Shown piece by piece: positions 13,121 to 62,000 of a stretch of 64,000 nucleotides of DNA. Each line of letters begins with the position of its first letter. Positions within the stretch are counted from its first letter, which is position 1. The stretch is from Folioceros fuciformis (lineage: Eukaryota), in assembly GCA_049999805.1 (NCBI GenBank), contig JBNGIO010005634.1:1-64000 (forward strand), in the 5' to 3' direction. The translations under genes were made by a program, and so were the position numbers. A model generated the notes under the pieces. The model did not search any database and had not been told where the DNA came from. It saw only the letters and a list, made by a program, of their open reading frames with translations.

Positions 13121-13460
13121 CAACTTTGATCGACTCTTCAGGTATTCGCCCTGAATCCCGGTAGGCACTGGCAACTGAATTCCGCAAGTCCCTGAAGATC
13201 ATTGCTCAGACATCAACTCCCCGCTATGATGCTTAGGTCTCTCTGCAGAATTGCGTGGAGTGAAAGTGGCAACGTCAGGTTCTGACAAGCATTGTGACTA
13301 CTCTTCACAACAACCCAAGCGATTGCATCTGCATAGGTGTACTGATACCACCACCTTCTCCTCCTGCATCGCATATCATCTCCACATAAGTCCATTCCCG
13401 CGAAGACTTTAACCGGGCCTTTCTGTGAGATCAAGCTGCGGAGGGTGCAGGCAGGGCAAG

Positions 13461-25984: not shown

Positions 25985-27298
25985 AGCTTCCCTTACTGTA
26001 GGGCTTTGCAGAGGTTTTGTGACTCGGTACAGATTGTCTACTTCAAGATCTCTTAGAAAGCCCTAAAAGGCAAGCTTAGTTCTCCGGGATAGAAGGAAAC
26101 GAGCTTCTTACTCCCTCCTGTGATCGCCTCGCTGTTGGCTGCCAGGGCCAGGGTCAAGACTTAGAGGAAGGTATCAAGGTGTTGCACAGGCGGTGCCGGA
26201 TGCCATGGTATCGCACTCGCATACCTCAGTCAGCTCCGCGTCAAGGTTCTCCAAGTTTTGGTTGTGCCGTGGGAAGTCCACAAAACAGCGTGGTGTGTCA
26301 CAAGGTACATCATCTATCAACGTTTGAATCATGGATGTGAGACACCGCTTGGAGATGCATCATCCCCCGTGGCCTTCTGCTGGGACTGTGTCTGCGTGGC
26401 TTGCGACTCAGCCACAATTCCAGAGTGGCTCCAGGTCTGCGGAACAGTAAGGAGAACCCAGTAGTTGCGCTATGGCCGTTGTCGGGCAGACGGCACGGAT
26501 TCTTCGTGGCCAGCAGAGGGTGCGTATCACCATGGCAATACTGCCAAGGCAGCGTCGGAGGTGAAGCCGTAAAGCAAGAGCAATAGAAACTGGCAAGGCT
26601 GTAGCCTGCCATGGCAGGCTACAGCCAGGAGCCACACAGGGACTACCTCTGCCACAATCACCTTCCTCCTCTGTTTTGCCGGTTTGCTTTGCGCATCTGT
26701 CTGTTGCGAACATACTCTGGCGCTTCCTTTTTCGAGATGTAACAGAAACCAATTGCCTGCAAGGCGATTACTGAACCCTTGAAGCTCCATTTTCTATTTG
26801 CATGCATCTGGTGCGGAATTTGTCGAATCCGGCACTGGCAAAGGATGCCGTAAGGAGGGGAAGGGAAGGATGATACTGAACAGGGGCAACTGTCCAGCTG
26901 CTACCGGTTGAACTAAATGGCGAGAACCAGAGGTCAGTGGACGATGACCAACAGGAAGGAGGCCTCGTCACAGCGATGGATAACGGATGAAAAAGGGACT
27001 TGATTTTTGAACTCTCCCCTCCAACTACAGTAGTACCAGACCGGAAACTGCCTGACCTCCTTGGAAGTGCTGCTCGAATTAATTATGTTACTCGTTTATT
27101 GTTCTGAAATAATTGGTTTCGTTTGTTTTTAAACCTGTCGGTCGGCCTCGAAAGGGCTTGGCTTGGCTCGTCGGTCACCCCTAAGAAATGTTTGATGGCG
27201 CTAAAATAAAGCCTTAAATCTTTAGTCGCCCTGACGAAAGGAATTTGGATGTGCGGCCTCACCATTTGTGGGACGCACTACACGCGATTTGTGGCAAC

Positions 27299-38159: not shown

Positions 38160-41100
38160 TGTTAATGTATGTATCTAACCCTAGTGTAGATACAGGTCCA
38201 GGTCGTAGGTTAGACTAACAACTCTAGCGGTTAGTAACCGCTCGTCGCATGCTCATGTCACCGGCGTGTACTACATTCTTAATGCTAATCCTCCTACGCC
38301 TACCGGCCTTCCGCGCGTGCTGATACATGTCATGGTATCAGAGCTACAATCATCTCGATTCCCGGTCTGATTTAATCAATCACGATTATGCAACATGGCG
38401 CTGGAATTCTCTCCAACCCCTGGTGAATTTTTCCAGTCACGTTGTGTTGTGCTTGCATCTCGGACCTGGTTCCACGCAATGGCCACTTTTCTAGTGGCAG
38501 GCTTGCACGGCGCCTTTTCTTCGCCAACCTGAGCGTTGCTACCTCGGTTGTGCTGCTGTTACAAATGCATCTGGGGATTCATCTCTGGAGAATGTCGACG
38601 GCAGCAAGCGAGGGTTGGTGACAATGCCTGGTTTGCAAAAACAATAGCGCCTAGCAAGGAGAGCCAGTATCCAGCAAGCACTGCGAGACTGGGAACGCAG
38701 GCAGGAGGAGGCTTACATGTGTCCTCTTGCACCCACGCGATGGCAACAGGTTTGGGTACAAATATGCATCATTTGTGAACTAATGGCCACGAACATTGTA
38801 CAAGGTTATCCAGCCCTCGATGGATATGACTGGGGTAAGATAGATGTGTTGGATTTACTTTGAACGCCATCCTGCTCCCTGAAGGCAGAGTGGTTGAGCC
38901 TGAAGTCCTAAGGGGCAGTCGAAGATCATGGCCCAGCAGCAGACTCCTCAACTCCATGCAATCAATATACCAAAGGAGGACAAGTTCGATGGTACTAATT
39001 ATCATGTATGGCAGAAAAGTATGGAGGAGATTCTCAAATCGAGAAAACTTTGGGCACATGTTTACGGTGTGGGTACACCTCCCGTACCCACACCCAAGCC
39101 AGGTGCTGGAGCCACACCAGAACAAGTAGCTAGTTGGGAGGAAGCTGACCAGTTGGCACGCACCTTACTGCACTTCAGCGTCAAGAGTAGCCATACTGGA
39201 GTATTCCAAGGCGCTGAAGAGAATGCAGCCGCCTGGTGGAAACAGATTAAAGCATTGTACGATTCGAGGGATCTCATGCTGCAAACCTTTGTACTCAAGC
39301 AGTTCATGGGTCTGAAAATGAAGGAGTCAGACTCTGTTGATCAGCATGTCCTCGAGTTTCGTAACTCTCGAGCACGAGTGGCATCTGTAGGCTTTAACAT
39401 TGAGGAGGAGCTCCTGGCTGTCATTCTCCTCACCACATTGCCCGAGACTTGGTCAAGTGTGGTTCAGGGCCTGCAAGGAATTCAAGCCATCTCAGTAAAT
39501 CGGGTGATAGCAGCCATGCTTACAGAAGAATCTCGAAGGAAGATTGCAAGTTCGTCTCTCTCAGGAGGAGAAGACAAGGCCCTATGGACGGGCAGACCTG
39601 GAAGAGGTCGAGGACGTGGACGTCCCTTTGTAAGAGGCAGGGGCAGAGGCCGAAGCATGCCCCCTAGGTCTCCAGGTTTTGGCAGCAGCAAAGGCAAGCC
39701 ACCATGTGGGTTCTGCGGGATGACCAACCATACTTAGGAAGTGTGTCGAAAGAGGCTGGCTGGAGAAGGTGGACACTCGGGGCACCTAGCTGTGACCATG
39801 CACAAGTACAGTCGAGCTTTCTGTACTAGTGTCATTTCCGACACTAAAGTGACCTCACCTCGAGATCACATGTGCAACGTGGCCACCTGTTTTGCAAGTC
39901 AACTTGACCACACATGGTACATTGACCGCGGAGCCTCGCAGCATATGACTCCTCATGCTGCATACTTTACTGAATTGACTGAGTGTGAGACTGCCAAGTT
40001 TGTGTGTTTGGGAGATAACTCACATCATGCCATTGTAGGCCAGGGCACCATTCGGCTAGACTTGAAGCATGACCAACACTTGGAAATACCTAATGTCCTC
40101 TATGTGCCAGGACTTGCCAAGAATCTTGTTTCAGTTCGCAAAATCGACGAGTCGGGCTGCTTTGTGTGCTTTGGAGGCAGCAAGTGCGTAGTAGAAACCA
40201 AGGAAGGCACCCTCTTGGCCACTGGCCACCTACAGGAAGACGATCTCTATCACCTCGACCTTCAGGATGCAAAGGCATACTCAGCAGGAGGCAGCTCACA
40301 TTACGCCAAACCATCACTTACGTATCTGTGGCATCTTCATCTAGGTCACGTTAACTTTCGCAAGCTCGTCACCATGTGCAAGACAAACTGGTGGATGGCA
40401 TTACTTTGGATAGTTTGCAAGACTTTGGAGTCTGTGCGGCGTGTGTTTTGGGCAAACACAAGCGGTCACCTTTTCCTGTTGACACGGCCACCCGAGCAAT
40501 GGAGCTTTTAGGCCTTGTGCTTAGCGATGTCTGTGGCAAACTTCCAGTTTCTTTAGGAGGGCATGAATACTTTACCACATTCATTGATGACCTCTCCCGA
40601 TTTTGCGTGGTTTACTTCCTAAAGCACAAGTCCAAGACCTTCACATGTTTTGTTGAGTACAAGGCCTAGGCTGAGACACAGACTGGACATCGTTTGAAAG
40701 TGTTGAGGTCTGATAATGGCGGGGAGTACATCTCTCGTGAGTTTGATGCCTTTTGCAAGGAGCCTGGAATCGGCAGGCAACTGACCAATCCCTACACCCC
40801 GCAACAAAATGGGGTTTCTGAAAACAAGAACCGGTCTTTAGAGACATCAGCCACAAGCATGCTGCAGTATGCAAATTTGCCTAAAGCCTACTGGGCAGAA
40901 GCCGTGGCTTATGCAGCTTATATTCAGAACAGAATAGCACACAAGGCAGTGAAGGGCAAAACTCCTTACGAACTCTGGACAGGCAGGAAGCCAAACCTCT
41001 CCCATTTACGTGTGTTTGGCTCATCCGTGTATACACAGATACACAAGGACCTGCGCAGAAAATTCGAGCCTAAGTCTAATCATTGCATCTTCATCGGCTT

Positions 41101-43590
41101 TACTGAAGGCATAAAAGGCTTCAAAGTGCTCAATAGACGAACCCGAGCCGTCACTCACTCTCGGGACGTGGTGTTTGTCGAAGGTGTGGAGTCTCAACAG
41201 CCAGTGGGAGCACCCTTGCCTACGTCTTCTAGCTCGGATGACGATTCTGCACATGAAGAGGAGGAGGAGCTGATGGTTGGAAACATACCAGTACCTCTTC
41301 CTGCAGCACCGGTAGCACCTGTGGTACCTGCTGGACCAACAGTACCGCAGTCACCACAAATGCATACACCATTAAGGACACCTGGACGCATTGTCAGTAG
41401 TAGAAACCCACATGACATACCTTCGGCCGAGTCATTGCATTTTGAAGAGGCGGAGACAATAATCCCGTCAGCTCCGCCAGTTGGACAGAACAGAAAGAAG
41501 GATAAGCATCCTCATTTCGAGACGAGGCAATCACAGAGGACGCGCAGACTCTCCGACTTCTATGTGCCAGAAGACTTTCGGTACTCAAAATCACATTTGA
41601 CCTACTGCCTAGCTGCCAATACTGTGCTGTATGAACCTCCTACTTATGAAGAAGCACTCCGCTGCCCTGATGCTGAGCACTGGCACAAAGCTATTCAGTC
41701 TGAATTAGCCTCCCTGTACGAGAACCAAACATGGACAATTGCCAGTCTCCCTGCAGATAGGAAGCAAGTGGGCAGTAAGTGGGTTTTCAAAATCAAACTA
41801 AAAGCTGACGGAAGTATTTCGAGGTACAAAGCAAGGCTAGTCGCAAAAGGGTATTCGCAAATACCCGGGGTGGACTATGATGATACATTTAGTCCTGTAG
41901 TTAAGCTAAATACCTTGCGGATGTTTGTTGCCCTTGCTGCGGTCAACAATCTCGAGCTGGAGCAGCTCGACGTCACCACAGCATTCCTGTATGGGAACTT
42001 GCAAGAGGAGATTTATATGCAAATCCCTGCAGGAGTATTAGTACCAGCGAACGTGCCTCGTCCAGTATGCAAGCTTAGGAAGACATTGTATGGGCTTAAG
42101 CAAAGCCCCCGAGCATGGTATGAACGCATTCATACGTACCTGACAGAGCTTGGATATGCAAACTTGCATGCTGATAGCAATGTGTACGTTAAGCAAGAAG
42201 GAGGAGATTTTCTGGCACTCGCCATCTATGTGGATGACATCATAATACTTAGCAATTCCCATAGAATGATTTTCGAGCTTAAGGATCACCTGAGAAGAGC
42301 GTTTAAGATCACTGAGGCTGGTGCACTGGTGTACTGCCTTGGTATGCAGTTACAGCGAAACCGAGGTGCAGGGACTATCTTCCTGCATCAACATTCATAT
42401 GCGCTGCAGATTTTAGTTAGGTACGGCATGCTAGGATGCAAACCCATTGCAACTCCAATTGAGCAGAACGTTAAGTATGTACAACAAGTTGGAGAGATAC
42501 CCTCTGAGGATGCTGAGTATGTCGAACTCTACCCGTCGAAGAATGGGAGCCTGATGCATCTCATGATTGGGAGCAGACCTGACTTAGCATTCACCTCCGG
42601 CTTAGCATCAAGGTTCGTGTCGAACCCCAACAGAACACATGTAGACCTGATGACAAGGATCTACAGATATGTATCTGGAACAGCAGACTGGGGAATTCTC
42701 TACAGTGCAAAAGCGAAAGAAGCCCTGCACCTGACTGCGTACAGTGATGCTAACTGGGGTGGCGACCCAGACAGCCGCAAAAGTATCTCCAGCTATGTGA
42801 TGATCCTGGCTGGAGGTGCAATCTCATGGAGTAGCTGTAAGCAGACCACAATCGCACTCTCCTCTACGGAAGCAGAATACAAAAGCCTGACAGAAGCGTG
42901 CAAGGAAATTACATGGTCAGTGGGAGCGTTGAGGGAGCTTGGCATACCACAGGAGCTTCCAATTGAGCTGCTATGCGACAACCAAAGTGCGATAGCTCTG
43001 TCCTTGAATCCGCGCTTCCACGCCAGGACGAAGCATATCGGCATTGAACATCAATATATCCGAGAAACCATTGCTCAAGGTCTGGTAACGATCTCTTACT
43101 GCCCCACTGAAGCCATGATCGCAGATATTCTCACGAAGGCACTTGGACGCGTCAAGCATTACGAGCATGCAAGCAACATGGGGCTGAGGTCTGCCGGCAA
43201 ACCGTTGAGATGGAGTGTAACTGCTGATCAGAGAGTGCGCCTAGAAGCGAAGACTGAAGTCTGAAGAGTGTTGACAGTTGTTAGGGCTGACGAGTTTCTT
43301 TCAATAATGTCAAGTTTCTATAGATTAGGTTAGCGCTTCTCAGCTAAAAACTATACAAAACAACTATAAACTATATATATATATAAACATATCCTAACTC
43401 TAGACCTGAGTGGGAGTGTTAATCTATGTATCTAACCCTAGTGTAGATACAGGTCCAGGTCGTAGGTTAGACTAAAAACTCTAGCGGTTAGTAACCGCTC
43501 GTCGCGTGCTCATGTCACCGGCGTGTACTACATTCTTAATGCTAATCCTCCTACGCCTACCGGCCTTCCGCGCGTGCTCGATACATGTCA
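38160..43590 (+). mobile_element. Full-length Ty1/Copia LTR retrotransposon (coding region disrupted)
   Basis: TG..CA LTRs at 38160-38332 and 43417-43590; TSD ATGCA on both sides; PBS TGGTATCAGAGC at 38333-38344; purine tract before the 3' LTR; gag-PR-IN-RT-RH order. Confidence 0.97.
38928..43264 (+). pseudogene. Copia gag-pol polyprotein with two premature TAG stops and a frameshift
   Basis: Gag KFDGTNYHVW and zinc knuckle CGFCGMTNH; protease WYIDRGASQHM; integrase LRSDNGGEY and TPQQNGVSE; RT YKARLVAKGY, QLDVTTAFL, LYGLKQSPRAW, IYVDD; RNase H YSDANW and ADILTK. Stops at ~39737 and ~40669, frameshift near 40380. Confidence 0.93.
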
Positions 43591-48594: not shown

Positions 48595-51500
48595 CTCACA
48601 AGTACAAGTGCTTGCGAAACAAATGTGTTACAAATCACCCCAAGTACAAGTGCTTGCGAAGCAAATGTATTACAAATCACCCCTTTTCGTTACACTAAAC
48701 TATAACATGGATGCCCTACATGTACTAGAGACATGACTCTCCATGCCACACCTTTTGCTCCATGTCTACTCACTTACATATCAACCATAATTAGCGATAG
48801 CTTGTGTTTGAAGCTTTGGATTCAACCTTCACACTTACTCATTTCCTCTGAGGTGCAAGAACAAGCCCAAGGTCATATAATCACAACCTCATGATCGTAT
48901 TCTTGCAAAATCAAGTTCTTGTTCTTGCAGATCATGATCATTCATCCATTTCTATGATAAGATCAGATCTTGATCATACTCACTCAAGATGGTGATTTTC
49001 CTAGATCAAAATCATGGAAGAGATTTGTTTTTTTCCATGGCCATGACTCTTAAGAAGAATGGACGAAGCCTAAATAGAACTAATGACTCGTATTCTGGCT
49101 TTGTGCGCATCCTTTGTCACAATCCCACAGTAGTTAGCTCTTGTTCATTGGTTCTCTCTAAAGAACCCACTCCAATAATAGAGGTTTGGGATGTGGAAGC
49201 TGCAACTTAATTGCTAGTGGTTGGAATGACTTTCCTTTATTATTTGCTCACATGACACCTTGACCTGTGAATTTACATAAAACCTTGAACTTTAGGGTCA
49301 CTTACAAAGAGTGACAATTGTCACTCTCTGTTGCAGCTATCCTGGCACTCTCTATTGCGTCCTCTATAGCCATTGTCTTCTCTTACTTCTTGAAGGAGTG
49401 AGTGATATGAGCTCCTTCGTTTAGTAGTCCCTCTTAAACTCCCTTAGAGTCTTCCAAATTTGGAACGTTTTCTTCCTTTAGGGACTCTAAAGGCTTTAAA
49501 ATTTTTGAAGAATAAAAAGTGAAGTTTGTATCGACCTATTAAAGATCTTCCCTTATCATTCTTCAAAGTCCTTTGTATTCAAGCATTTCCTCTAGATCTT
49601 CCTTTGGGAAGTTTACATGCCTAGCCACTGGTGCTTGCATTGTTCATTAGTGATCCTTTAGTTTAACCACATCCAAAGTAATAACTTTCATTGTGTTGAT
49701 CTTTAATTTTGCAATCTTCTTTAGCTGCCTCCCTAGCGTGGTTATTTGTGCTTGAAGCTATTGAATGCCCTTCAGCATGTGATGCCTCCCTCAAGGCTGG
49801 GTTCCCTACCTTGATCTTCTTCAATATATTTCTTAGCTCTGACATCTACATGGCTATCTTCAAGGTTAATTCTTGCTTCTTGTGGCTTAATGGCTAAAAC
49901 CTCAATGTGTTGATCTGGAACCGAGTCTATTGAGCAAAGATATCCTTGTCTCTCTTGTTTTTAGCTCATTGCATAGCTTGATGACTCCCTTTGGCTTGGG
50001 CAAAAATGTAGTTCTAAGTGATTCCTATTGCTCCAAGGCCTACTTGATGTGTCCAATTGCATCCTTTGTCGTCTTGCTGAGATGCTCTAATTCCACTAGT
50101 CTAGCTTGCACCACCTCTAGGGCCTAAATGCTCTTTTCCATGACAATAGCCCGGTCCAAAGCTGCCTTAGCTATGACTTCCACCACCCTAGCCCGTCCCA
50201 TGGTAGTGCAAATCTTCTTCTTGGCCTTTTGTGTCTTCGTTTGTTCTATTGCGAGATGGGTTCTTATTGATGTTGTAAAGGGGTAGACAACAAGAGGCGC
50301 TTGGGTGTAAGGGAAAGAGGAGGAGCTATTAGGGTGACTCAAAGGAAGAGGGTATGGTAGGAGGCCGAGGCATGACAAAGGTGGAAGATAGGGAGAAGGA
50401 GGAGGAAACGTCTCTTCTTGAGAAATCATTTGAGTGATAGCCAATTATTTAGGCTATCTCCCATGCCATACCTCAATTAACAAAGGTTATGTCGAAGTCG
50501 TCACATGAAACAAATAGCAAAACAATTGCAACACCATGATTCATGCAAACTATCCACTAGTGCACGGAAGACCCCCCCTCCCAGAATGTGGTATAACACC
50601 TCGTGTAGTTCCCCTCCTATATCAAGTTAATAGCAAATAAGGTGTGAGCGTCCATCTCTTTGTTTTCCTCAAACAAGAAAACTTATCTCATTGTTCTTAG
50701 TGCAGTTTGATGACCCTACTATTTTGGGTTTAGATTGACCTGAATTTAAATTTTAAACTAACTTTCTAAGTAACTTTCTAAGAAATTGGTATCTACCCAT
50801 CTCCATGTGAGGACTCATAGGACTTTTGTCCTCCATGTGCAAATCTTGTATAGTCATGGTTGTCAATACCCATATCTGCTTGTAAGTAATGTGAACATGA
50901 ACTTACAGAAATAAGTGAAATTATTTACATATGCTTCAAGGTACATAAACATATATAAAAAATATAATAGAAATTTTTTGAGGGCAGTATGAGAATCCTT
51001 TTTCCCTGCCACGACCCAAGAATATCTTGGTTATGGCTTTAGTTGTGTCCCACGACTCCGGAGTTTTGTTCTCCGGCTGTCCCACATCACCGGGGATACA
51101 CATTGACAAAAAAAGACGAGGAAACGGGAAAAGAAAGCACTCGGAAGCTGCACGGGAAGCTTCGCCAGGCTGTAAGGTCGCAATGTTGCAACGATAATGG
51201 GCGCTCTGGTTGGCTGTCGGGAAAGCAGCCTCCTCCCCTGATGAAGGTTTTATCGCCTTTGACTGGGGTCCGCACGGGCCTTTGCTCATATATTAGTAAA
51301 TGGGCACACCGCCGCCGTTTGAAGAAAGAGAGAAGACAGAGGCTGGAGGCGAAATCATTCGGTATGCATACTGCACTCTCCTGTCCTTCAGGTGCAACCG
51401 AAGGCGGAAGTGTCTGTCCATACCGACATCTCAGTCTCTGATGTCTCAATCGCGCGTTGCAGTTGGAGACGCGAATCCATGACTGGTGTAGCCGAACCTT

Positions 51501-51803
51501 CCGTTTGGTCTTCGGTGTGCCAACGTCTCAGCGGCCTGGTAGTTTGACTTATTTGATCCAGTGCTTGCTCGGAACTTCATTGTTGTTCGTATGGAGGTGT
51601 GGATTCATTCCTTGCCGTAGCTGCGACAGCTTGTTTCATTTGTGTGCGGCGCAGGAGTGTGTAATGTGGTGTGCGCAGTCGTCAGAAGGCAATTCTGCAT
51701 CAGATTCGGAGGCCTGTTGGTTTGATTGGCGCTGAGATTTGATCTGTGGCTTGCACGCAGTGTTTAATGACTTGATACGAGCTGTGGATTCGGAAGGTGG
51801 AAA

Positions 51804-54800
51804 ATGGCGGACAGGCGAGGGGAGGTTGCGCCGGGAGGTCCTCGCCGGAGCGTGGGTACGAGAGATGGGGAGGTTCCCAGGCTGGAGAGAGGAGGGAGCA
51901 GGGGGGAAGGCGGGCTGCCTCAACGCCCTGGTGTAGATCCTGTGCTAGGACGCGCCAGGTCTGCCAGCTCGAATCCGTTTGTGGACGACCCGGCCATGGC
52001 CGGTAGGACTGAGCCGCTTCCACCAAATGCTCCTCCTCCTGCGGACGAGCTTTTATGGAATCCACTTCTCAGTCGGAGCGGGGCTCGCTCCAGGGGATCC
52101 AATTCGGGCAGGCGGTCACAGGCAGAGGACTCTGCTCGGTGGAATCCGCTGCTGTCCCGGGCCGGATCGCGCCACAGTCAGCCACTGGGGGATGATGCTT
52201 GGAATCCCGTTCTCAGTCGAGCGAGGTCGGGGAGCTCCAACATAGGGATGGACTACGTGCGTGGAGCCTCTACCAACGATGGCTCTGTTATGGCAGCCGC
52301 CACTGCGTTTGACCCATCTGTCTTGTTGCAGGAGGGTCTCGGGGAATGGAAGGATCGTAATTTCAATCTTGCCTACATCAAGAAGGTGCAGAGTTTCAAA
52401 GGAAGGAATGTTGAGGAGCTGATGAGAAGTGCGAGCCGAGGTGCTGAGGAGAAGGGGCAGGGGGAGACTGTGGAGGAGCCTGTCAGGATGGACTACTCTT
52501 TGGACCTTCCCAAGGACTTCTACGATGTTCTGGCAGCTGCACCGCACGCTGCTTTGATACATCTTGTCATCCTCTACCATCAGGCGCTTTGGAAGAAAGG
52601 TTTTCTCTCCGAAGCAGATAAGATTGCAAGGACCTTGTCGGAGCTCCGCATTCCAGACCAGATATCTCAGACGGAGCTGAGGGGCATGGATCTTCTGCTC
52701 AAAGATGGGCTGTTGCAGTACATGCAGCGTGTCAGCCCACATTTGCCAGTTATTCCCACCCAGGTTGGTGCTGTGTCCTTCTCTTCTGCTATGGTGACCG
52801 CATGGGCCATGTCTTTATTTTGCAAGCGAGGTTGTTATCTGAAGGGGAACTGTTTGGCTTTCAGATTGTCAAGTTCAAAAGTCTCTCTTACAGTCGGGAA
52901 GTGGTCAGACCGGATATTCCGTATGAGACCATGTACACCAAGGTGAGCAGGAGTGGTACATGTCACCGTAGTGAATCCCCCCAACATCGTGACATCTCAC
53001 GGAGTGGGTTCTTACGCTTGCTGACAGGTGATGGGTTGTATTGCTGGGCCCTTGAAGAAAAAACCTGTCCCTGAGACGGTTCACTTTCTCAAAGATGTCA
53101 CAGGCTACTTGATGCCGGGCACGCTCACTCTGATTGTAGGTAATGGTGGAGCGAACCCATGTGTCGTCATCGTCCAACTCCGACTTCGTAGTACGTAGCA
53201 TTTTTTGTTCTTAGATTTGTCCATGAAGGCTTAACCTTCTCCGCACGCTCTCTGGTACAGGTCCTCCTGGTTGTGGTATGAGTATTCTGCTGAAGTTGTC
53301 TGCTGGTCGTCATCCTCTGCCGGGTGCCCACGTTGAGGGCAGTGTCACCTACAACAATAAGGAAGTCAGTGGTCTCCTGTACCAACGCCTTGCTGGTGTT
53401 ATTGAAAATCGGGACGTCCATCTCGCTAACTTGACTGTGCGGGAAACTTTGGAGTTCGCCAGAGATGTGTCACTGGCTTGGAGTCCTAAGATGTATGGGC
53501 CAGAATTGCTGCGAATGTTATCCGAGGCTCTCGAAGCTGGACAAGATCCGAAACTGGAGCTTACCCTCAGCATGTTGGGTTTGAAAAGGGTTGCTGACCG
53601 CCCTGTGGGGGCACAACTGACGGAAGATGAAAGACACCGCTTGACAGCAGCGGAGGTGGTGGCAGGGGCCTATGCTGTTTATCTTTTCGATCAACTGAAT
53701 GCTGGCCTGGATGATTCGGTAACGTATGACCTCGTGAACAGCCTTCGGATCTTCACCCGTGTCCGCCATTTCACTGTGATGGCTTCACTGTTTCAGCCAT
53801 CGGCTGAAGTGTACGACCTTTTCGACAGAGTCATCGTTCTGGACAAAGGGCAGGTGGTGTTCCAGGGTCCTCGCGAAGATGTGTTACCATATTTTGAAAA
53901 ACTTGGGTAAACTCCATGCGAAGGGTTGCTTTCTGAAGGTTTCTACTCTGCTGCGGGTCTGCTTGATCAATGCATTTACAGTGGCGACTGCACTGTTGTG
54001 TTGGCAGATATTTTAAGCCAATTCATCTGGGAATTGGTGAATTTTTGGGTGAAGTCACCACTGAGGAGGGTAGACAGTACCTTCGGAATGGCTTTCCGCC
54101 ACTCAGCTTGGATGATTTCGTAACTGCCTTTCGTGCATCCGATGCCTATGCACACATTTGTCAAGTTGTAGACAGTCCAGTCCTGACGCAGCAGGTCTGG
54201 GTGCAGGTAAATTGCTGCGTTTTGCATGGTTTCAAGTTTGTTGTAATGTCAAGATTCAGCACTTCAAAACACAGCTGTGTCTGCAAGCGAAGAAAGAAGC
54301 AAAAATTTTTGGAAGTTTCTTCTGAGTCTCATCGGGCTCCTCATGGCAGGGTTCTCAGCCTATCGGGTTAGACCTTGTAGATCGTCAGGACACGCTCGGC
54401 GCCACGGAGCTTCCTTCAACAGTGGTTGCAGGGCTATCTGCTACTAGCAGTCTTCAGACTACATCAATGGATCAAACCTTAGAGGTCCAGCCTGGTGACG
54501 AAGTTGTTGCGTTTGGAGGGCCTTCAGAAACTTTGCACTACTTGAAGGCAGAAAACCTGTCAGCAACTGAAGTAAGAAGGGCCATCGATCAGATTCAGGG
54601 CCCCGTGCGTTTGCAACTTCAGAGAACTGTGAAGGAGGTGTGTGCTTCGTGTCATGGTTCTGTTGGTTTGACTGTAACCCTTCACCTGCCTAGTCTCTGG
54701 TGTAATGCTGCTGATCCTACAAATGGTGGAGGTGTAATTGATTGTTATGACCTGGCGAGCAGGTAGATAACGACACAATCAACCGACAATTCACGGAGGA

Positions 54801-57800
54801 TTACATTCTGAGTCCTGGTAGTGAATTCAGGAGACTTTTACAACGGGAGGTGACAGTCGCCTGGAGGAATAAGTTTTCTCTGGGTCTACGCCTATTTCAG
54901 GTCTGTTCTCCCAAGTTTTGACTGCCCGCATGATTTTCATAGCTGCAGCATTACTTTGCATAACCGTTGTACATTTCTAAGCTCGTGTTACTGTTGTGCA
55001 GATACTTTTGATGAGCTTGTTCACAGGTTTCATCTTCTTCCGTGTGCGAAATAAACCGAAGCAAAATAATATGAATTTGTTACGGGGCTCATATTTTGTC
55101 TCACTTCTGAACATGACGTTGTTCAATCTGGGACAAATCCCTGTTTTGATGGAGGAGAGGGCAATTTACTACAAGCAGCAAGGCCAACACTTCTATCGTC
55201 CCTCAACTTTCCTGTTTGCAAAGATTTTTGGAAGCATGCCAGTTTCGTTGGCTGAGGTACAGCTCTTATTCTGATTCTTGCTGTCACTTTGGTACGTTAG
55301 TCCCTCTAGGTCTTCTAATTGCTTCCCTTGGTCTTCCAGGCAACAGTGTGGACCTTGATAGTGTATTACACGACGGGCCAAACTTTGTCGGNNNNNNNNN
55401 NNNNNNNNNNNNNNNNNNNNNNNNNNNNNNNNNNNNNNNNNNNNNNNNNNNNNNNNNNNNNNNNNNNNNNNNNNNNNNNNNNNNNNNNNNNNNNNNNNNN
55501 NNNNNNNNNNNNNNNNNNNNNNNNNNNNNNNNNNNNNNNNNNNNNNNNNNNNNNNNNNNNNNNNNNNNNNNNNNNNNNNNNNNNNNNNNNNNNNNNNNNN
55601 NNNNNNNNNNNNNNNNNNNNNNNNNNNNNNNNNNNNNNNNNNNNNNNNNNNNNNNNNNNNNNNNNNNNNNNNNNNNNNNNNNNNNNNNNNNNNNNNNNNN
55701 NNNNNNNNNNNNNNNNNNNNNNNNNNNNNNNNNNNNNNNNNNNNNNNNNNNNNNNNNNNNNNNNNNNNNNNNNNNNNNNNNNNNNNNNNNNCCACAGCCT
55801 TGGTCATAAACGAATTCAACTCTGGTAGCTTCAGCATGCTCTGTGGGGACATACCCAATATCTTAAATCTGCCTCAGTGTAATGGCCGACCCGAGAACAC
55901 CATTGGTCATGCATACTTGGCGAGAGGTCAATTCTACACCGGATACCATTGGATCGGTATCGCAGTGGCTTGCATCCTTGGCTGGATAGTCCTTTTCAAC
56001 ACATTGGCGTATCTCGCACTCGCCAAAATCAGGCATGTTGAACCACCTCGGGTACCCGACAATCGCCAGGCAAGTGTTTTGTGGATGCCAATGCTGGAAA
56101 TTTCCAAGTCGTCAATGTGGGGAGTGTGCTGTTGGTCTCACTGTGGTTGGTTTTCTGTTCGTTCTTCTCAGCATAAGCATAACAGCTCCATGCAAGTTGC
56201 AGCGGAAGATGTGGAATGGGCAGAAGCTGCAAGGCAGAAGCTTACCCATACAGCTGTACCTGTGACTCTGTCCTGGCATGAACTCAGCTTCGATATTTTC
56301 ATACCCCAAATCCAAGAAACTCGATCCATTTTGAAGTATGTATCTGGTTGGGCAGAACCCGGTGACATGCTCGGCATATTGGGTTGTACAGGTTCAGGGA
56401 AGACAACTCTGCTCAACTGCCTTGCAGGTTCTCCACCTTTCTGGTAGCTTGGGTGTGTCGTTTGTCTTTCTCCAGGGCTCTGGACTTCACACTTCTGTAT
56501 CTGTTGCTGTGCAGGACGCAAAGTGGACTTGTCCAGGGTAGGAGGGCAAATATTAGTCAACGGGTTCCCTCGAAATCAGAAAACTTTCTCAAACGCTGTC
56601 GGATATGTTGATGTTTTCGAGGCCTACCCACCTTACATGACTGTAAAAGAAGCAGTTGCTTTCAGTGCAACTATGAGCCTTGGCAGGCACTCGACAGCTC
56701 AGAGCCGTAGAGAGTTTGTTGAAGAGGTAGTCCAATCATATCAGCCCACCCTTATCGCTTGTAAGTGCCAATGCTCTTGTCTTGGATAGAATGTTGACGA
56801 CCTATGGGTTCCCTGGTTAGATATTGAGCCTCGTGGAAATCAAGCACTTCGAAGACGCATTGGTGCTCTCCTTGGGCGAGAATGTGTTGGCGAAAGACCG
56901 GGCTGTGCGAATGGCTATAGCGTCAGAACTGGCGTCTAATCCAAGTGTCATTTTCCTTGACGAACCCACAAAGGGACTGGATACCCAGGCTGCGGTACAC
57001 GTGATCGATTCTCTTCGGGTACGTGTGGAGTATAACGTGCTGAATGAAGCAAGCTTGTTGGAAGTTCAGTGTGTGACCTTTGACTGGATGCTCCGCAGCA
57101 TATCGCAGCAACAGGAAGGACCATAATTAGTACTTTGCAACATCCAAGTCAGAGACTGCTCTCAGCATTCACGAACGTCACGGTTTTGAAGAAGGGTGGA
57201 TCAATTGTTTATTTTGGTTCAGTTGGCAAGAATGGCAACTATCTGCGGGTATGTCGTTGAGCTTATGCGAGCATTCCTCATGTTCATGCGAAGTATTTCT
57301 GACAAATTGCCGGGCACCATGACCTTTGATCGTTGCGCTGCAGGAGTATTTTGAAGCCATCCCAGGCACACCTCTGTGCCCTCCAAACAAGAATGCTTCC
57401 ACCTTTGCTATCGATGTGATAGGAGATGGTGTGGCCAATCTGGTCGCCGTCAAGGACTATGCGTTCGAGTACCGAGTGAGTGATCTGGCTCTAAACAACC
57501 ATGTGAACCTGCAGAGATTGCGACGGGATAAGACTGGTCCTGAACTCATGGGAACGGGTTACCGTGCATCGCAAGGACAAATGTTGGCGGAGGTTGTGAT
57601 TAGGATGCAGAAAATGTATTGGAGAAACGTGAACTACAGCTGGGCGCGGATGATGTTTGTGACGGTCATGGGTTTATTACTCGGCTCCGTCTACTTTGAT
57701 GCAAAGTACCTTACAACGCCGAAAATGAATAAAAGGGCCTTCAGTATCTTCATATCGTGTGTGCTTATGGGCATCACCAATGCTCAGAACGTGATACCAC

Positions 57801-58680
57801 AGCTTCTGTCACACAAATTAGTATACCTACGAGAAGCAGCGGCCAACCACTACAGTCCTCTGCTGTACAACATTTCCTGGGGTTTAGCGGAGGTAATATT
57901 CTTTGCAGCCCAGAACAAGGGGTTGGCACTTCGCGGCTTCTGTTGGTTTGAGCTTTCATCTGAAAGTATGTATGACTACATGACGAGCCTCACTGTGCAT
58001 GCAGATTGTTTACCTTACGGTGGCCACGATGATATTCTGTGGCATCTTCCTTGGCATGTCTCAAATCGCAGTCGGCGATGCGAAAGACTTCTTCCAGTAC
58101 TGGTTCATCCTTTTGGAATTTACGCTCGCCATTACATTTTTTGGCATGTTTTTGGCAGTTGTCTCTCCTGTTCCACAGGTAAGCATTTATCTTTTCTGTT
58201 CGGTCGTTATCCTACAGAGTTCTGTTACGGTTCTGTTCGGTGCTAACTCAATGTTTGGTTGTGCAGATTGCGGCTGTGTTGGTGCCAATTGTCATCAGCA
58301 TGTGGGTGTCAACTGGCGGTGCAGTTATTACGCACAGGCTGCTGCTGAAGCCTTTTGAATGGATGTTTTGGACAAATCCACTGCAGTACGCTCTGAACAG
58401 CTTGACATCCATTGCCTTCTTCTGCGACACTTTCAAGCCGGAGTGTCTGGATGGTGGAGCGAATATGGCCTGTTTAAACGACGCAAGCAAATGTCCGCTA
58501 TGTGACTGTCCACGCCTGGTTGATGCGAATAACATATTCGTGTGGACGCAACTCAAGTTCAACCGGTCGTTGAACCACGGCCGTCTTGGCATCGACATGG
58601 CAGCGTTGGCCGCTTTGTGTATTTTTTTCAGATTTCTAGCTTACCTAGTGCTCTCGTATCGCAAGAAAAAGAATTGGTAG
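51804..58680 (+). CDS. Atypical full-size ABCG (PDR-type) transporter, NBD1-(PDZ-like)-TMD1-NBD2-TMD2, multi-exon; part lies in an assembly gap
   Basis: LKDVTGYLMPGTLTLIVGPPGCGMS; HLANLTVRETLEFA; SLFQPSAEVYDLFDRVIVL; EERAIYYKQ; LKYVSGWAEPGDMLGILGCTGSGKTTLLNCLAG; ELASNPSVIFLDEPTKGLD; YWRNVNYSWARM; YLREAAANHYSP; WMFWTNPLQY. Confidence 0.88.
55392..55791. other. Assembly gap (400 N) inside TMD1 of the ABCG gene
   Basis: N run between exons TVWTLIVYYTTG.. and ..LVINEF. Confidence 0.95.
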
Positions 58681-59023
58681 AATGGCACGAATGTTTTGAC
58701 CCTTGTAAATTGTTCTCACCTGATTGACGTGGCACCTTTACTCACTTTTTGTATAGTCTTCAGATTTCTAGCAATCTTGTACCGCAAGGGCGAGATTTGG
58801 TAAGACAGCATCGATGCCTAGATTCTTGTAAATTGATATTACCTTATTACTACCGCACAGGTCATTCTTTAGTGGCTTCTTACCGTTTGCCATTACGAGA
58901 GCAAAGAGACTCTACATTTTTGTTTCCTTACCAAAGAAAAAGGAAAATGAGCAAGATTTCTGCACAAATTTCTTCTTTTTTAAGAATACTGTAATCCTTC
59001 CAATTACGGACCTGATAATTATG

Positions 59024-62000
59024 TTACACCCACACTGCAGACGGATATGTCTCCATCTCGGTTGCCAATTCCGACGTCAGCTTCTCTGTTTCGTCATCAC
59101 AACCGCCTGCAAAGTTGTACACGCGATAAGATAGCTGAAAAGCTCCCCACAGCATCTGCAGGCAGATCTTCATCCTGTTCAGCTCGTACGATGGGTTTCC
59201 CCCGTTGCCTTGTGTTGTCAGGGATTTCACTCTTTTACTCTCCTGCGCCAGAGAACATTGGTCTCACCTCACTGAAAAACTGAAAATTCTGACAAAGCAA
59301 GACGCTGTAGAGGACCATTGTTTTCAGGAGTGACTATTGTGACATGTTACTTACTTCGAGTGCCATGATTACAGAACGGGAGGCCAGTCCAACCATGCCT
59401 TCTTTGATACGGACGACAATGCTGAAATCAAACTGAATCTTGTGCCCTGAGAAACGCTTCATGTCATCCTCTTTGTTCCTCTCCACAGCTTCAACCTCTT
59501 TCTTCACCTACATTAATTTGCAGAACGTAAAAATGTAAGAAGGAGAAGCAACGATGAGAGGAGCCTCTTCAATCATAGCACCAGCGGGACTGGTGGAGCG
59601 AGATACTTTGTTAGGCAAATACTGCTCCTGATCCTAACCTTTTCAAAATACAGATTGACTCTATCAAGTTGCTCTGAAGCAGGGGGATCAACTCTCCATT
59701 TCTCCACATGCTGTGCCATGGCAAGCAGTTTTGAGTACAAAGCTGCTGCCAGACGTATAGTTTCGAGCTTCTTACTAGGGAACCCCTCAAACCGTGCCAG
59801 CACCTGGAGATTGCAGCTCAATTTAGTGTGATAGAGCCCAGGACCACCAAGGCACATTACGAAAACAAAGAATCCTGAAACTACGCATCGTGCAGGACCA
59901 CATACACATGCTGCTTCCCACTCACCTGTGTCTCATCTGTCAAGTCTTCAAGCTGGATCTCAACGCTTTCATGGAAGCGCAACAGTTGATCCATGTTAGA
60001 GGTTTGAAACGATTCCACCGCCACCTTAGTTTCTAGTATACATTCAGCATGCCGTTGAACGTCATCTTCAATTTTTTGAAAATAGGCTGATCTGCAAGCA
60101 TCGCAGAAAAATTCGGCCACTAAAATTAAGATGAGGCACAGGAAGCAAGACAACAAGGTCAGAAAATCAAAGGTTTACACATGATGGCAAAATGTCTGAT
60201 GCAAGAAGTCCTTTTGAGGATCGTGTGACCTACTTTTTTGTGATCTCGGCAAGTGCGTCAGCCATGCCCCCTTGAGCGTTTGCACTAGCTGAAGGTTTTG
60301 GCAGGGGTGCACTTATACCAGAGCTGGTCTTCTGGCTTGTATATCGCCCCTCCAGTTTACCTTTCATAGCTCTATACAAAACCCCCATCTTCGAGGACCT
60401 CCGGAGCCTCGAAGTCTTTTTCATCCTTAGTGGGCCTTTGCCTGGTTTTTTTTTTGGTGGAGGTGGGGGACGATTGGACCCAGTTATACCTGAAGGATGA
60501 GGAGGGGGAGGAGGGGGAGGAGGGGGAGGAACAAGAGGAATAAACATGGACGGAGTCTCCCTACTCTTGACCTCAGCGTCTTGCAAAGGATGTCTGTTGT
60601 CTGAAACATCCTGCTTGCGAGAGACCGGTGTAGGGGCGTCTGGTAGTACATTCTGAGCTGGCTCCTTTCTCTCATGGGCACCGAATAGGTCAACGGGTTT
60701 CAGGTCAAAAACTGGGCTGAACATGTTCGGAGTAAAGTTCACAAAAAGGGGAGACTCAATAGTTGGCTTACTACTCCTTCTGGGAGAGACTGGCATGGGA
60801 TTGAAACCCATCAACATGGACGGCTCAGGCGAAAAACCTTGTCCCACACATTGGGGCACTGCATCAATATCCACTGGGTTATCGCCCTTCTCCAGGCGAA
60901 CCTGATTCGGCTGTGCTTCCTTCTCAAATATTAAGGCAGAGGGAGGCCACAGCAATGGTACAGCTCCAATGTGCATATGATAAGACTGCAGAGCATCTGG
61001 GGTGGGAGGAAGAACTGATGTGGGAGTGCATGATCCTTTAGTAGAAGAGCAAGAATCAGACTCTTGATCCTGTTGGCCACTTAGATCTGATTTCTCTGCT
61101 CCTTCATCTGCAAGGATTTGCACCGATGCATCGCCAGATTGCAATATATTATTGAGATCCTGTGAAGCAGAACTTCCCTGATCCTCAGATATTTGCACAG
61201 CAGATTTAGCATGCTTGTTTATTTCTTCAAGCATAAAAAATATCTTGTGGCCTACGTGTTCACAATGCCACAAACGAGTTAGCACATGGTTACTCCGGAC
61301 CACAAGGAAACCATAATCAACACGTACAACTGAATCAATCCACTTACTCAGCTGTTCCAGAGCAAAGGATTCATCCAGGGTATGACTCTTCAGCTTTGTG
61401 ATTTTGTTTTTACTATTTCTGAACTTGCTCCTTGTACTCCGTTGCAAGTAGTGTGAGTGCTGAGTAGGAGTTGAGGGCGAGCTCGCCTTCACCTGACGAG
61501 GGGAGTCCCGGTTTCTGTCCCAGAAGCTTCTCTTCCCCTGCAACTCTGCATTGTCAAACCATTTGCACATTGAACTCCAACAACAAGCGGCTTCAAGTGA
61601 ATCAAGTAATGTAAGTGTGTTCATCACGATTAGCTAGATACCTTGAAGGTGCACCTTCGCAGCCTTCTCGGTGTTCTCAACAGCAATGGGAACTTTTTCC
61701 TCATCCTGAAGTCATAGGGCAGACTCGATATTACCATTTCTACAAGGTGAGCAGAGCACTTTCTCCAGACATCAGTTAAAGCATCACACTACTAGGGTTG
61801 AGGTTATCATACACTGGATTCACCATCACTGCCACTGTACATGGAACCATGAAGATTGCTCTGCGCATCAAACAATCAAATATAAAGGCTTCTTGTACAA
61901 CACACACGTACTGCTTTCCTCAGCAAAGCCCTGTAAATGGATATGAATGGATACAAAACACGCCATTGTCTGGGCAAGGTTTTCCGGTGCTACCTTCTGT

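Follow-up and report, generated by a model that had tools for sequence, protein, structure and literature searches.

The cytosolic NBD1-TMD1 linker of a full-size ABCG transporter encoded in the window (the whole stretch of 64,000 nucleotides from Folioceros fuciformis contig JBNGIO010005634.1) contains an additional domain. It is specified by a genuine, spliced-in coding exon, exon 6, and marks, as a conserved feature, a single old lineage of streptophyte ABCGs, represented by P. patens, moss-like metagenome contigs and Mesotaenium. In our view, the best overall explanation (probability about 0.7) is a PDZ-like domain, for which peptide docking is a more tentative role.

Host gene and splicing of exon 6

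The host gene spans positions 51804-58680 on the + strand and is a full-size PDR-type ABCG gene of a land plant with about 17 exons and a product of about 1,730 aa, in which an N-terminal extension, NBD1, the inserted domain, TMD1, NBD2 and TMD2 follow one another. Along the entire gene it is collinear with its P. patens orthologue, annotated as 'ABC transporter G family member 31 / 51-like' (XP_024367765.1 and isoforms, UniRef100_A0A2K1IA42; P0049/P0050 in the following). The gene is made up of these parts:

51804..52763, + strand: exon 1, from the first in-frame ATG, N-terminal extension of ~320 aa; joint from 52763 to 52865 in 4/4 runs
52865..52942, + strand: exon 2, 26 codons; transcript joint
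53028..53139, + strand: exon 3, start of NBD1 (..FLKDVTGYLMPGTLTLIVG); joints and alignment to P0049
53261..53906, + strand: exon 4, core of NBD1; Pfam ABC_tran E=4.4e-07, 56% identity to P0049
54008..54206, + strand: exon 5, post-NBD1 helical linker; joints from 53906 to 54008 and from 54206 to 54350
54350..54637, + strand: exon 6 (model residues 666-761), which covers the PDZ-like domain, P-I-G-L loop through βF (VRLQLQR)
54763..54900, + strand: exon 7, pre-TM1 segment (..EFRRLLQREVTVAWRNKFSLGLRLFQ), elbow-helix region; transcript joints
55002..55256, + strand: exon 8, first part of TMD1; Pfam ABC2_membrane E=5e-14, joints
55340..55391, + strand: start of exon 9, which enters a 400-N assembly gap (55392-55791)
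55792..56069, + strand: end of TMD1 and PDR_assoc motif; splice sites, Pfam PDR_assoc
56172-56427, 56515-56726, 56821-57018 and 57099-57248, + strand: four exons for NBD2; joints, Pfam ABC_tran
57344-57892, 58005-58178 and 58267-58680, + strand: three exons for TMD2; joints, Pfam ABC2_membrane

The boundaries given for exon 2 are the sole GT/AG pair that leaves the frame open. The assembly gap is filled with about 231 nt by transcript contig X1, which also lacks the 102 nt of a GC..AG intron at 56070-56171. TMD2 ends with ..SYRKKKNW and the stop codon at 58678-58680. Exon 5 is homologous to the stretch 'LLEELWVEGNQPLGLGF' of P0026/P0027, while exon 7 aligns to residues 780-818 of P0049 and these in turn to the start of TMD1 in Pdr5.

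Pfam, the spliced contigs and the 1749-aa P. patens ABCG agree that an NBD and a TMD of the ABC2_membrane type occur twice in one polypeptide. TMD1 is followed by a PDR_assoc motif (PF08370) at 55794-56069 that scores 33.8 bits at a cut-off of 24.9. The window gene thus resembles yeast Pdr5 (7p03), Candida Cdr1 (9s2c/9iuk) and plant PDRs in its NBD-TMD-NBD-TMD order, its ABC2_membrane TMDs and its PDR_assoc motif. It differs from them in three respects. It possesses an N-terminal extension of ~320-340 aa that belongs to no known family (in Pfam, no family was reported for it at E<=0.01) and that shares 30-49% identity with residues 50-322 of P0049, it carries an extra domain of ~90-100 aa in the NBD1-TMD1 linker, and the signature motif of its NBD1 is degenerate as well. 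When P0049 is aligned to Pdr5, NBD1 (residues 362-620) corresponds to residues 172-425 and TMD1 (769-1011) to residues 483-721, leaving a linker of 148 aa in the moss protein as opposed to 57 aa in Pdr5, i.e. ~90 residues more. In angiosperm PDRs, both NBDs exhibit canonical Walker A, Walker B and signature motifs. The window gene departs from this pattern because the translated NBD1 reads GPPGCGMS for Walker A (without Lys), FDQ for Walker B and LTEDERHRL for the signature; NBD2 features a canonical Walker A (GCTGSGKTT) and Walker B (LDE) next to an atypical signature. Judged by the alignment with Pdr5, a degenerate NBD1 is common to the window gene and fungal PDRs.

Exon 6 comprises 288 nt at 54350-54637 (+), that is 96 codons free of stops with the translation GSQPIGLDLVD...VRLQLQRTVKE, and is bounded by AG and GT (CAG precedes it and GTGTGT follows). 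As exon 5 ends with ...VWVQ in phase 0 and exon 7 begins with VDND... in phase 0, the exon is symmetric (0-0). Both of its joints, 54206 to 54350 and 54637 to 54763, are of the GT..AG type and are found in one contig from each of four runs out of four, which stem from four organisms and four studies. The library type of these runs is recorded as 'RNA?'; we regard the contigs as derived from RNA because the introns of the window are missing from them. They also carry other intron joints of the gene, and 13 of the 15 joints listed (of 19) are GT..AG. Contig X1 is identical to the window, and X2, X3 and X7 differ by ~7%. Within exon 6 these three relatives show 22, 20 and 19 differences in 290 nt (6.6-7.6%) and not a single indel, compared with 40, 43 and 44 differences of 647 in the NBD1 exon and 93, 106 and 111 of 969 in the N-terminal exon. 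The divergence of exon 6 hence equals that of the NBD1 exon and lies below that of the N-terminal exon. A preliminary description of the locus, made from the DNA alone, had proposed a phase 0-0 exon of 288 nt with this very peptide, placed it between NBD1 and TMD1 and suggested its inclusion in transcripts as a check. All three points hold: translation and flanking phases agree exactly, the exon lies between Pfam ABC_tran (53227-53910) and ABC2_membrane (54981-55274) as in the collinear P. patens orthologue, and it is joined to both neighbours in contigs of all four runs.

We consider it highly improbable that exon 6 is a regulated cassette with coexisting isoforms that contain or lack the domain. 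Joining exon 5 directly to exon 7 would keep the frame (phase 0-0), and since assembled contigs lose rare variants and so cannot reveal minor isoforms, occasional skipping is still conceivable. However, inclusion is the sole form observed in all four runs, and none of the three RefSeq isoforms from P. patens lacks the domain.

Predicted fold of the exon 6 domain

When the exon 6 peptide was modelled by AF2 with a 31-row family alignment, a structure of intermediate confidence was obtained (pLDDT 70.7, pTM 0.59) with the element order E7-12, E24-29, E51-56, E62-64, H72-80 and E87-91. The model thus presents βB, βC, βD, βE, αB and βF in the canonical sequence of PDZ domains; αA is not predicted and βA falls outside the exon. 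A second model, computed for a moss-like family member including the putative βA, reached a pLDDT of 57.3 and was too weak for a fold search. In a Foldseek search of the PDB with the first model, all 43 rows listed among ranks 1-50 (with gaps) are PDZ domains, the best with a probability of 0.98 and a TM score of 0.56, and no row occurs at E<=0.001 (E>=0.14 throughout). A second comparison by VIA aligned 81 of 96 residues at 3.9 Å rmsd and gave a Z of 7.5. When 48,161 chains were searched by VIA without bias, the best 50 rows consisted of PDZ domains throughout, with Z values from 7.4 (4.2 Å rmsd, 83 residues aligned) down to 5.7 and 63-83 of 96 residues covered; on VIA's own scale, Z values of 7.4-7.5 are middling. 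The best structural matches comprise MAST1 (3ps4), InaD (1ihj), Par-6 (1x8s) and MAST4 (2w7r). At the moderate confidence of the model, a sandwich of five to six β-strands plus αB in canonical order is therefore predicted.

The sequences speak less clearly. Pfam detects neither a PDZ domain nor any other family in the window peptide, even at E<=10, and only one of the 31 family members matches PDZ_6 (E=0.005). In the Mesotaenium orthologue, PDZ_6 (25 bits as compared with a gathering cut-off of 27, E=1.6e-05) and PF00595 PDZ (E=0.018) are the sole non-ABC families reported at E<=0.02, and neither this protein nor the window peptide attains the gathering score of the Pfam PDZ clan (PF00595, PF13180, PF17820). 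A profile search of the PDB placed the PDZ domain of PDLIM2 in the top three positions (1vb7/3pdv/2pa1) in correct register with E=0.0018-0.031. A further profile search returned the same protein with E=0.0075-0.1, and matches became weaker with a cleaner alignment of 12 rows (E=0.032-0.11). PDLIM2 is the only protein matched by sequence in the PDB, and these matches depend largely on its RLQLDR strand. The nearest language-model neighbours of the domain include PDZ clusters with scores of 0.92 and 0.86-0.87, which we take as leads only.

Conservation within the family is concentrated in the P-Φ-G-Φ loop, the GD..VA.GG strand and the VRLQLER strand. P4 is invariant in the 15 sequences and G6 in the 25 sequences that cover the respective position, the Φ between them is L, M or I, and position 7 is L or V. 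The carboxylate-binding loop X-Φ-G-Φ accordingly stands directly before βB, in the window as P-I-G-L. T43, D50, A54, R87, Q89 and L90 are invariant in all 31 aligned sequences, and R92 is present in 30 of them. The window copy deviates from the family consensus in the βC/αA region (SATSSLQT instead of EKGGSLAE) and has L in place of F at position 9. The PDZ-like motifs listed in the preliminary description are real and coincide with the most conserved columns of the 31-sequence alignment. Its PDZ interpretation is partly supported: PDZ domains are the closest match to the fold predicted for the exon, and the sequence remains below the Pfam thresholds for PDZ.

Canonical eukaryotic PDZ domains and the exon 6 domain share a length of ~90-100 aa, a non-permuted order of strands and helix, the X-Φ-G-Φ loop before βB, a βD of the type 'GD..V.A.(N/G)G' and an alternating hydrophobic βF that ends in R. 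The exon 6 domain is distinguished by a long, poorly predicted loop with a conserved S-M-x-H-T (residues 30-50) that replaces αA, by a further, variable loop that separates βE from αB, by its sequence lying under the Pfam thresholds and by being embedded in a transporter rather than a scaffold protein. Considering everything, the domain very probably adopts a canonical, non-permuted PDZ-type fold, an identity that derives mainly from predicted structure, as sequence support is marginal. In the best-supported order, βA (ahead of exon 6) is followed by the P-Φ-G-Φ loop, βB, βC, a long loop that stands in for αA, βD (GDEVVA.GG), βE, αB and βF (VRLQLER), with the last codons of exon 5 (..QQVWVQ) probably forming βA.

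Two other readings of the domain deserve consideration. It could be a lineage-specific, β-rich linker domain that is drawn to PDZ by short motifs such as GD..V and RLQL.R, which would agree with all sequence-based tests staying under curated thresholds, with the moderate AF2 confidence for either model (pLDDT 70.7 and 57.3), with a Z below 8 and with Foldseek E values at or above 0.14. We deem this unlikely, as a number of weak signals all point to a single fold family: PDZ domains fill all of the best 50 rows from 48,161 chains over 63-83 of 96 residues, the conserved loop and strands appear in correct order and spacing, and PDZ_6 and PDZ stand alone beside the ABC families at E<=0.02 in the Mesotaenium protein. 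The domain could also have the PDZ fold and no external ligand, forming an intramolecular structural or regulatory block; its βA/βF face (R-L-Q-L-E-R), for example, could pack on the dead NBD1, the N-terminal extension or the elbow helix and so tune the coupling of NBD1 and TMD1. Several observations are in line with this reading. βF is the strictest conserved stretch and its outward polar residues (R87 and Q89 invariant, R92 in 30/31) are maintained to a degree unusual for a strand that merely fills the core, the domain is found together with two further traits of the lineage, namely the conserved N-terminal extension and the degenerate NBD1, and the window copy has drifted from the consensus in the βC/αA region. 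On the other hand, P and G do not vary among the sequences covering the P-Φ-G-Φ loop, for which retained peptide binding is the simplest reading, and we hold a purely intramolecular role to be possible but rather doubtful. A complex prediction for residues 225-667 and 668-778 of the P. patens protein scored 0.01, with alignments unused and the fold of the partner uncertain, and so counts neither in favour of binding nor against it.

Distribution and origin of the insertion

A phmmer search against 1.84e9 representatives resulted in nine matches at E<=1e-3, seven of which are family members, among them the 1213-aa ABCG of Mesotaenium. The remaining two, P0003 and P0005, are bacterial-type repeat proteins with low-complexity similarity that were judged spurious and excluded from all alignments. 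Among longer proteins, a homologue search with the single peptide had found nothing at E<=1; the profile search later gave two, the P. patens "ABCG31/51-like" protein at E=1.4e-49 and, at E=2.6e-37, a model from Mesotaenium. It also gave 28 near-length matches that are short fragments from metagenomes or runs.

The orthologue in Mesotaenium endlicherianum is gene model ME000174S02104 (P0009). In moss and alga the domain resides in the same position as in the window gene, with 42% and 33% identity, respectively, to the window domain. The loop of the P. patens domain is a textbook L-G-L-G-F as compared with I-G-L-D-L in the window, and the moss NBD1 retains the Walker A Lys (GSGKRT) that the window gene lacks. 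The Mesotaenium model, which is truncated, repeats the domain segment exactly within the protein, and this duplication is probably an artefact of gene modelling or assembly. All six P. patens cluster sequences that span the linker region keep the domain. Five of the seven metagenome loci returned are true, and in all five the domain lies inside an ABCG collinear with P0050. The other two, L006 and L007, do not match the ABCG and were dropped as chance pattern matches; one of them falls in a long prokaryote-type ORF with the motif AGDEVVAFGG, and a high-GC contig carries the other.

Across the protein, metagenome and run sequences searched, the domain family was found solely inside this one ABCG lineage, with nothing better than about E=1e-3 outside it. 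The preliminary description, which knew of no plant PDR with such an architecture, is superseded by its presence in P. patens, M. endlicherianum and five metagenome loci, and the arrangement is therefore an old trait of the lineage and not a peculiarity of this genome. A literature search yielded no paper on a PDZ-like domain within an ABCG. Early-diverged full-size ABCGs of the 'V1-Type' have been described from Chara, Klebsormidium, Physcomitrella, Sphagnum, Selaginella and Amborella (Cho et al., 2020; PMC8359288), and the motifs of the domain family do not appear in two supplementary text files of that article.

The insertion is ancient, being older than the divergence of land plants from Zygnematophyceae. 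For its origin, exon shuffling had been put forward, by which a PDZ-coding exon would have moved into a linker intron of a PDR gene and created a transporter-scaffold hybrid. Several features fit: exon 6 has phase 0 on either side and encodes almost the entire domain, the 5' intron of the window occupies the same codon position (directly before G-x-x-P-Φ-G) as those of L001 and L005, the three representing as many lineages, each locus read has an intron after the domain, and the linker of Pdr5 is short at the insertion site. Nevertheless, a donor PDZ gene was not found, with nothing outside the ABCG lineage scoring better than about E=1e-3, strand βA (...VWVQ, directly before the G that opens exon 6) is probably encoded by the upstream exon, and L002-L004, three near-identical loci of one lineage, do not contain the 5' intron. 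Intron positions are weak witnesses because the event is older than the Zygnematophyceae/land-plant split, and shuffling is, to our mind, a rather improbable route.

Possible peptide binding and biological significance

PDZ-mediated control of the position or activity of ABC transporters is an established principle, with CFTR-NHERF1 and MRP-PDZK1 as examples of ABC transporters serving as PDZ ligands. There, a motif at the C-terminus of the transporter is recognised by a PDZ protein distinct from it, whereas in the window ABCG the PDZ-like module is located inside the transporter and the C-terminus is devoid of a PDZ motif. The transporter's own tail is an unlikely ligand, since the C-terminus is not conserved between the window gene (..SYRKKKNW) and P. 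patens (..MANKAHH) and contains no class I/II PDZ motif. Based on the invariant P and G of the carboxylate-binding loop and the conserved αB helix, the domain may still have the capacity to bind peptides. Tentatively, and at somewhat less than even odds, we propose that the βB/αB groove would accommodate a short peptide, either the C-terminus or an internal strand of a partner. A docking site would in this way be built into the pump, which may position it or couple partner binding to movements of NBD1/TMD1. As NBD1 looks catalytically dead, the half that contains it would plausibly be the regulatory one. A more far-reaching proposal is that a canonical-type PDZ domain has been a working peptide receptor in a streptophyte ABCG since before the colonisation of land, that binding in its groove positions or gates a pump with a dead first ATPase site and that flowering plants later lost the hybrid; we regard this as conceivable, with the balance clearly against it.

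Pfam misses the domain in the window and in the moss protein, and it is unannotated in the RefSeq and UniProt entries for P. patens. Together with the lack of any paper found on it, this indicates that the annotation of these ABCG genes is incomplete. To our knowledge, PDZ modules are otherwise almost confined to animal scaffolds and proteases. If our reading is true, the protein would be a rarity on two counts, as a plant membrane protein with a canonical PDZ-type fold and as an ABC transporter with a PDZ domain of its own instead of being bound by one. On the more far-reaching proposal, it would be a ligand- or partner-regulated ABC transporter, a 'transporter-scaffold hybrid'. ABCG/PDR pumps, whose expansion is linked to the plants' transition to land, serve in the export of cuticle lipids, hormones and defence compounds. 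A linker domain of peptide-binding type that is conserved in an alga, a moss and the plant studied here would offer a concrete regulatory handle for such pumps.

The host transporter gene and its surroundings

Most of the PDZ-like domain is encoded by a single exon of a full-size ABCG gene, which was modelled from contig joints and splice sites that keep the frame.

Exons of the ABCG gene (all on the + strand)
51804-52763: exon 1, N-terminal extension
52865-52942: exon 2, 26 codons
53028-53139: exon 3, start of NBD1
53261-53906: exon 4, NBD1 core
54008-54206: exon 5, post-NBD1 linker
54350-54637: exon 6, PDZ-like domain
54763-54900: exon 7, pre-TM1 segment
55002-55256: exon 8, TMD1
55340-55391..: exon 9, entering a 400-N gap
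..55792-56069: exon 10, end of TMD1, followed by a GC donor
56172-56427, 56515-56726, 56821-57018, 57099-57248: exons 11-14, NBD2
57344-57892, 58005-58178, 58267-58680: exons 15-17, TMD2

The predicted protein of ~1,730 aa features two ABC_tran and two ABC2_membrane matches as well as PDR_assoc (33.8 bits, cut-off 24.9) in Pfam. Exon 6 makes up residues 666-761, with NBD1 to its N-terminal and TMD1 to its C-terminal side, and Pfam matches and gene model thus agree with the originally proposed placement between NBD1 and TMD1 of a full-size ABCG/PDR transporter. When the Physcomitrium patens orthologue P0049 is compared with yeast Pdr5, NBD1 (362-620) corresponds to residues 172-425 and TMD1 (769-1011) to residues 483-721, leaving 148 residues in between in P0049 versus 57 in Pdr5. 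The insertion therefore amounts to ~90 residues, the size of the PDZ-like domain. Judged by its motifs, NBD1 (53028-53906) is degenerate, with all three catalytic motifs lost: Walker A reads GPPGCGMS and lacks the lysine, Walker B is FDQ instead of DE, and the signature is LTEDERHRL instead of SGG. NBD1 from P. patens, in contrast, still has the Walker A lysine (GSGKRT). NBD2 (56172-57248) features canonical Walker A and B motifs and an odd signature, VLAKDRAVR.

The assembly gap at 55392-55791 lies inside TMD1. The otherwise identical contig X1 has ~231 nt there, which match ~95 residues of P0049 (904-998) without a counterpart in the window. Intron 56070-56171 has a GC donor (CAG/GCAAG..CAG/), and its flanks differ in three related species ('skips 106, AT..TC, 4 letters between'). 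The N-terminal extension (51804-52942) places ~340 aa ahead of NBD1, matches no Pfam family and is 30-54% identical to P. patens, with 42% identity to Mesotaenium over its last 100 residues. It represents the second addition specific to the lineage and co-travels with the PDZ-like domain.

Other genes in the window
10265-13198 (-) and 13413-16208 (+): long, intron-less, divergent pentatricopeptide-repeat genes
22831-23745 (+): open frame encoding a glycosyltransferase family 61 domain
27218-30172 (+): Dis3/Rrp44-like exoribonuclease, a single 984-codon open frame with PIN_4, CSD1, CSD2, RNB and S1
38904-43264 (+): LTR retroelement of the Ty1/copia type, whose gag, Pol beta-barrel, integrase remnant and RVT_2 are distributed over three adjacent frames
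60230-61633 (-): open frame of 467 codons that is convergent to the ABCG gene and contains a PPPPPPPPPPPP run (FH1-like)

The two PPR-E/DYW genes, the GT61 glycosyltransferase and the copia element identify a land plant as the source. One member of the PPR pair carries an E motif, the other combines an E motif with a DYW deaminase domain, and both are of organelle RNA-editing factor types. The Dis3/Rrp44-like gene is apparently intron-less, in contrast to the ABCG gene. No Pfam match was obtained for the 467-codon frame. As contig X1 reaches ~3.8 kb past the 3' end of the ABCG gene, transcripts of the two convergent genes may overlap.

Splicing and conservation of exon 6

Translation of 54350-54637 gives 96 residues without a stop, identical to the peptide initially quoted. 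The exon is bordered by CAG/ and /GTGTGT. Exon 5 closes (..QQVWVQ) and exon 7 opens (VDND..) with a whole codon, such that exon 6 is symmetric, of phase 0-0 as described before, and the frame survives its skipping. The introns on either side measure 143 and 125 nt, similar to those elsewhere in the gene (80-121 nt). Four of 22 candidate sequencing runs, none of which is recorded as RNA, were compared with positions 51500-58900; their contigs (X1, X2, X3 and X7) stem from four organisms and four studies. Joints 54206/54350 and 54637/54763 are present within one contig in each of the four runs (after stated cut shifts), which confirms that exon 6 is spliced into the transcript. The remaining listed intron joints were likewise recovered in all four; the list comprises 15 joints, of which 13 are GT..AG, and leaves out another four. 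X1 matches the window perfectly over every listed piece and yet lacks its introns, the pattern expected of spliced mRNA. The other three diverge by ~7%. A minor isoform skipping exon 6 would be compatible with these contigs.

Differences from the window in X2 / X3 / X7
Exon 6 (290 nt): 22 / 20 / 19, no gaps
Preceding exon (196 nt): 13 / 17 / 17, no gap count given
NBD1 exon (647 nt): 40 / 43 / 44, no gap count given
N-terminal exon (969 nt): 93 / 106 / 111, 12-nt indel

By these counts, exon 6 changes in the manner of the catalytic core, unlike an intron or a disordered tail. The 12-nt difference is an in-frame insertion at 51971 in the three related species relative to the window.

Fold, distribution and origin of the domain

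Sequence evidence for a PDZ identity is marginal. The exon 6 peptide has no Pfam match at E<=10, and PDZ_6 is matched by only one of 31 family members (E=0.005). The full Mesotaenium protein reaches E=1.6e-05 for PDZ_6 (25 bits, cut-off 27) and E=0.018 for PDZ. Family profiles searched against all PDB sequences have the PDZ domains of PDLIM2 as top matches, with E-values of 0.0018-0.031, 0.0075-0.1 and 0.032-0.11 for the successive alignments A1, A2 and A5, and in correct register (GD..VA.. on βD, RLQLER on βF). An AlphaFold2 model based on 31 aligned sequences (pLDDT 70.7, pTM 0.59) contains strands 7-12, 24-29, 51-56, 62-64 and 87-91 and helices 65-68 and 72-80, which in the prediction follow the canonical order βB, βC, βD, βE, αB, βF. 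All 43 PDB matches that Foldseek listed (within ranks 1-50, some ranks missing) are PDZ domains, the best of those listed having a probability of 0.98, TM 0.56 and E 0.14. A second look by structural alignment with VIA gave Z 7.5 and an rmsd of 3.9 Å over 81 residues, and a VIA search of 48,161 representative chains, independent of Foldseek, returned PDZ domains in all of its best 50 matches (Z 7.4-5.7). As Z below 8 counts as middling, the argument for the fold derives from the uniformity of this list and from coverage of 63-83 of the 96 residues. A model of a moss-like member including upstream residues was poor (pLDDT 57.3). PDZ clusters also occur among the language-model neighbours of the domain and are taken as leads only.

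P4 occurs in 15 of 15 sequences and G6 in 25 of 25, while L, M or I occupies position 5 and L or V position 7, with P-L-G-L-G-F in most relatives; positions 4-7 thus read as a putative X-Φ-G-Φ carboxylate-binding loop. T43, D50, A54, R87, Q89 and L90 are invariant (31/31). We consider a PDZ-type fold probable (about 0.8). The PDZ pattern proposed in the preliminary description is borne out by predicted fold, loop and conserved columns but does not reach Pfam thresholds, and the domain is best termed PDZ-like.

The earlier assertion that no plant PDR with this architecture was known does not hold, and a bryophyte and an algal example were indeed found. Nine sequences among 1.84 billion representatives matched the 96 residues at E<=1e-3 in phmmer, seven of them true relatives, including a 1213-aa ABCG from Mesotaenium endlicherianum (jgi/Mesen1) that has the segment in the corresponding position; the other two, repeat proteins, were judged spurious and removed. 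Profile searches matched 28 near-length proteins, called at exon size from metagenome and run data; three of them reach upstream into the homologue of exon 5. Among proteins of 390-2000 aa, two were matched: a 1749-aa protein from P. patens (E=1.4e-49, 42% identity) and, at E=2.6e-37, the Mesotaenium protein. In RefSeq, members of the P. patens cluster go by names such as 'ABC transporter G family member 31 isoform X1-X3 / 51-like', and the domain is kept in all six of its sequences spanning the region. P0049 is collinear with the whole gene (NBD1 56%, domain 42%, TMD1 60% identity), and with NBD1 identities of 56% versus 45% the moss is nearer than Mesotaenium. A metagenome scan yielded seven loci; in five the domain sits within an ABCG collinear with the P. 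patens orthologue P0050, and two were chance matches. Outside this ABCG lineage the domain was not found in word-limited or clustered searches, which is weak evidence of absence. In the Mesotaenium model, the domain and the next segment are duplicated exactly (residues ~404-600, ARQPLGLAFG...SRFIT), which probably reflects an error of assembly or gene modelling and not a tandem PDZ.

The insertion must be older than the split between Mesotaenium and land plants. Exon shuffling, suggested at the outset, is a possible origin: the exon is symmetric, and the 5' intron of the window shares its codon position with that of metagenome loci L001 and L005. On the other hand, loci L002-L004 lack this intron and have linker and domain in one exon, and no donor PDZ gene close enough was found outside the family in phmmer and PDB profile searches. 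Furthermore, the residues ahead of exon 6 (..QVWVQ/G in the window, ..EHWVQG in moss, ..ELWVEG in the moss-like member, ..EIFIKA in the alga) look like strand βA when aligned, so the domain is probably not wholly contained in exon 6. The 3' intron follows the domain in every locus read.

Possible role in the transporter

Family proteins are already present in public databases, named only as generic ABCG, and the Mesotaenium model bears a precomputed PDZ_6 tag. We found no paper on a PDZ domain within an ABCG transporter in full-text searches for Physcomitrium or Mesotaenium, and looser searches listed no title or abstract describing the combination. Cho et al. (2020; PMC8359288) describe a clade of full-size ABCGs, named 'V1-Type', that diverged early, occurs in charophytes, mosses, Selaginella and Amborella and was lost in other angiosperms; full-text search implies that the word PDZ is absent from that paper. 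The ABCG studied here may belong to this clade.

The domain is a folded, selectively maintained module of ~100 residues on the cytosolic side, between the degenerate NBD1 and the segment leading into TM1. The pump's own C-terminus is unlikely to be its ligand, because the tails differ (..SYRKKKNW in the window, ..MANKAHH in P. patens) and lack a PDZ motif. The main rival to a peptide-binding role, an intramolecular structural function exerted via the invariant polar face of βF, seems only somewhat less likely than that role. The invariant peptide-binding loop suggests that the module most likely still binds peptide. The insertion is real, conserved and unannotated while its functional role is putative; tentatively, the module may have retained peptide binding and would then accommodate a peptide supplied by a partner protein or by an internal segment, giving the transporter a docking or regulatory site of its own.
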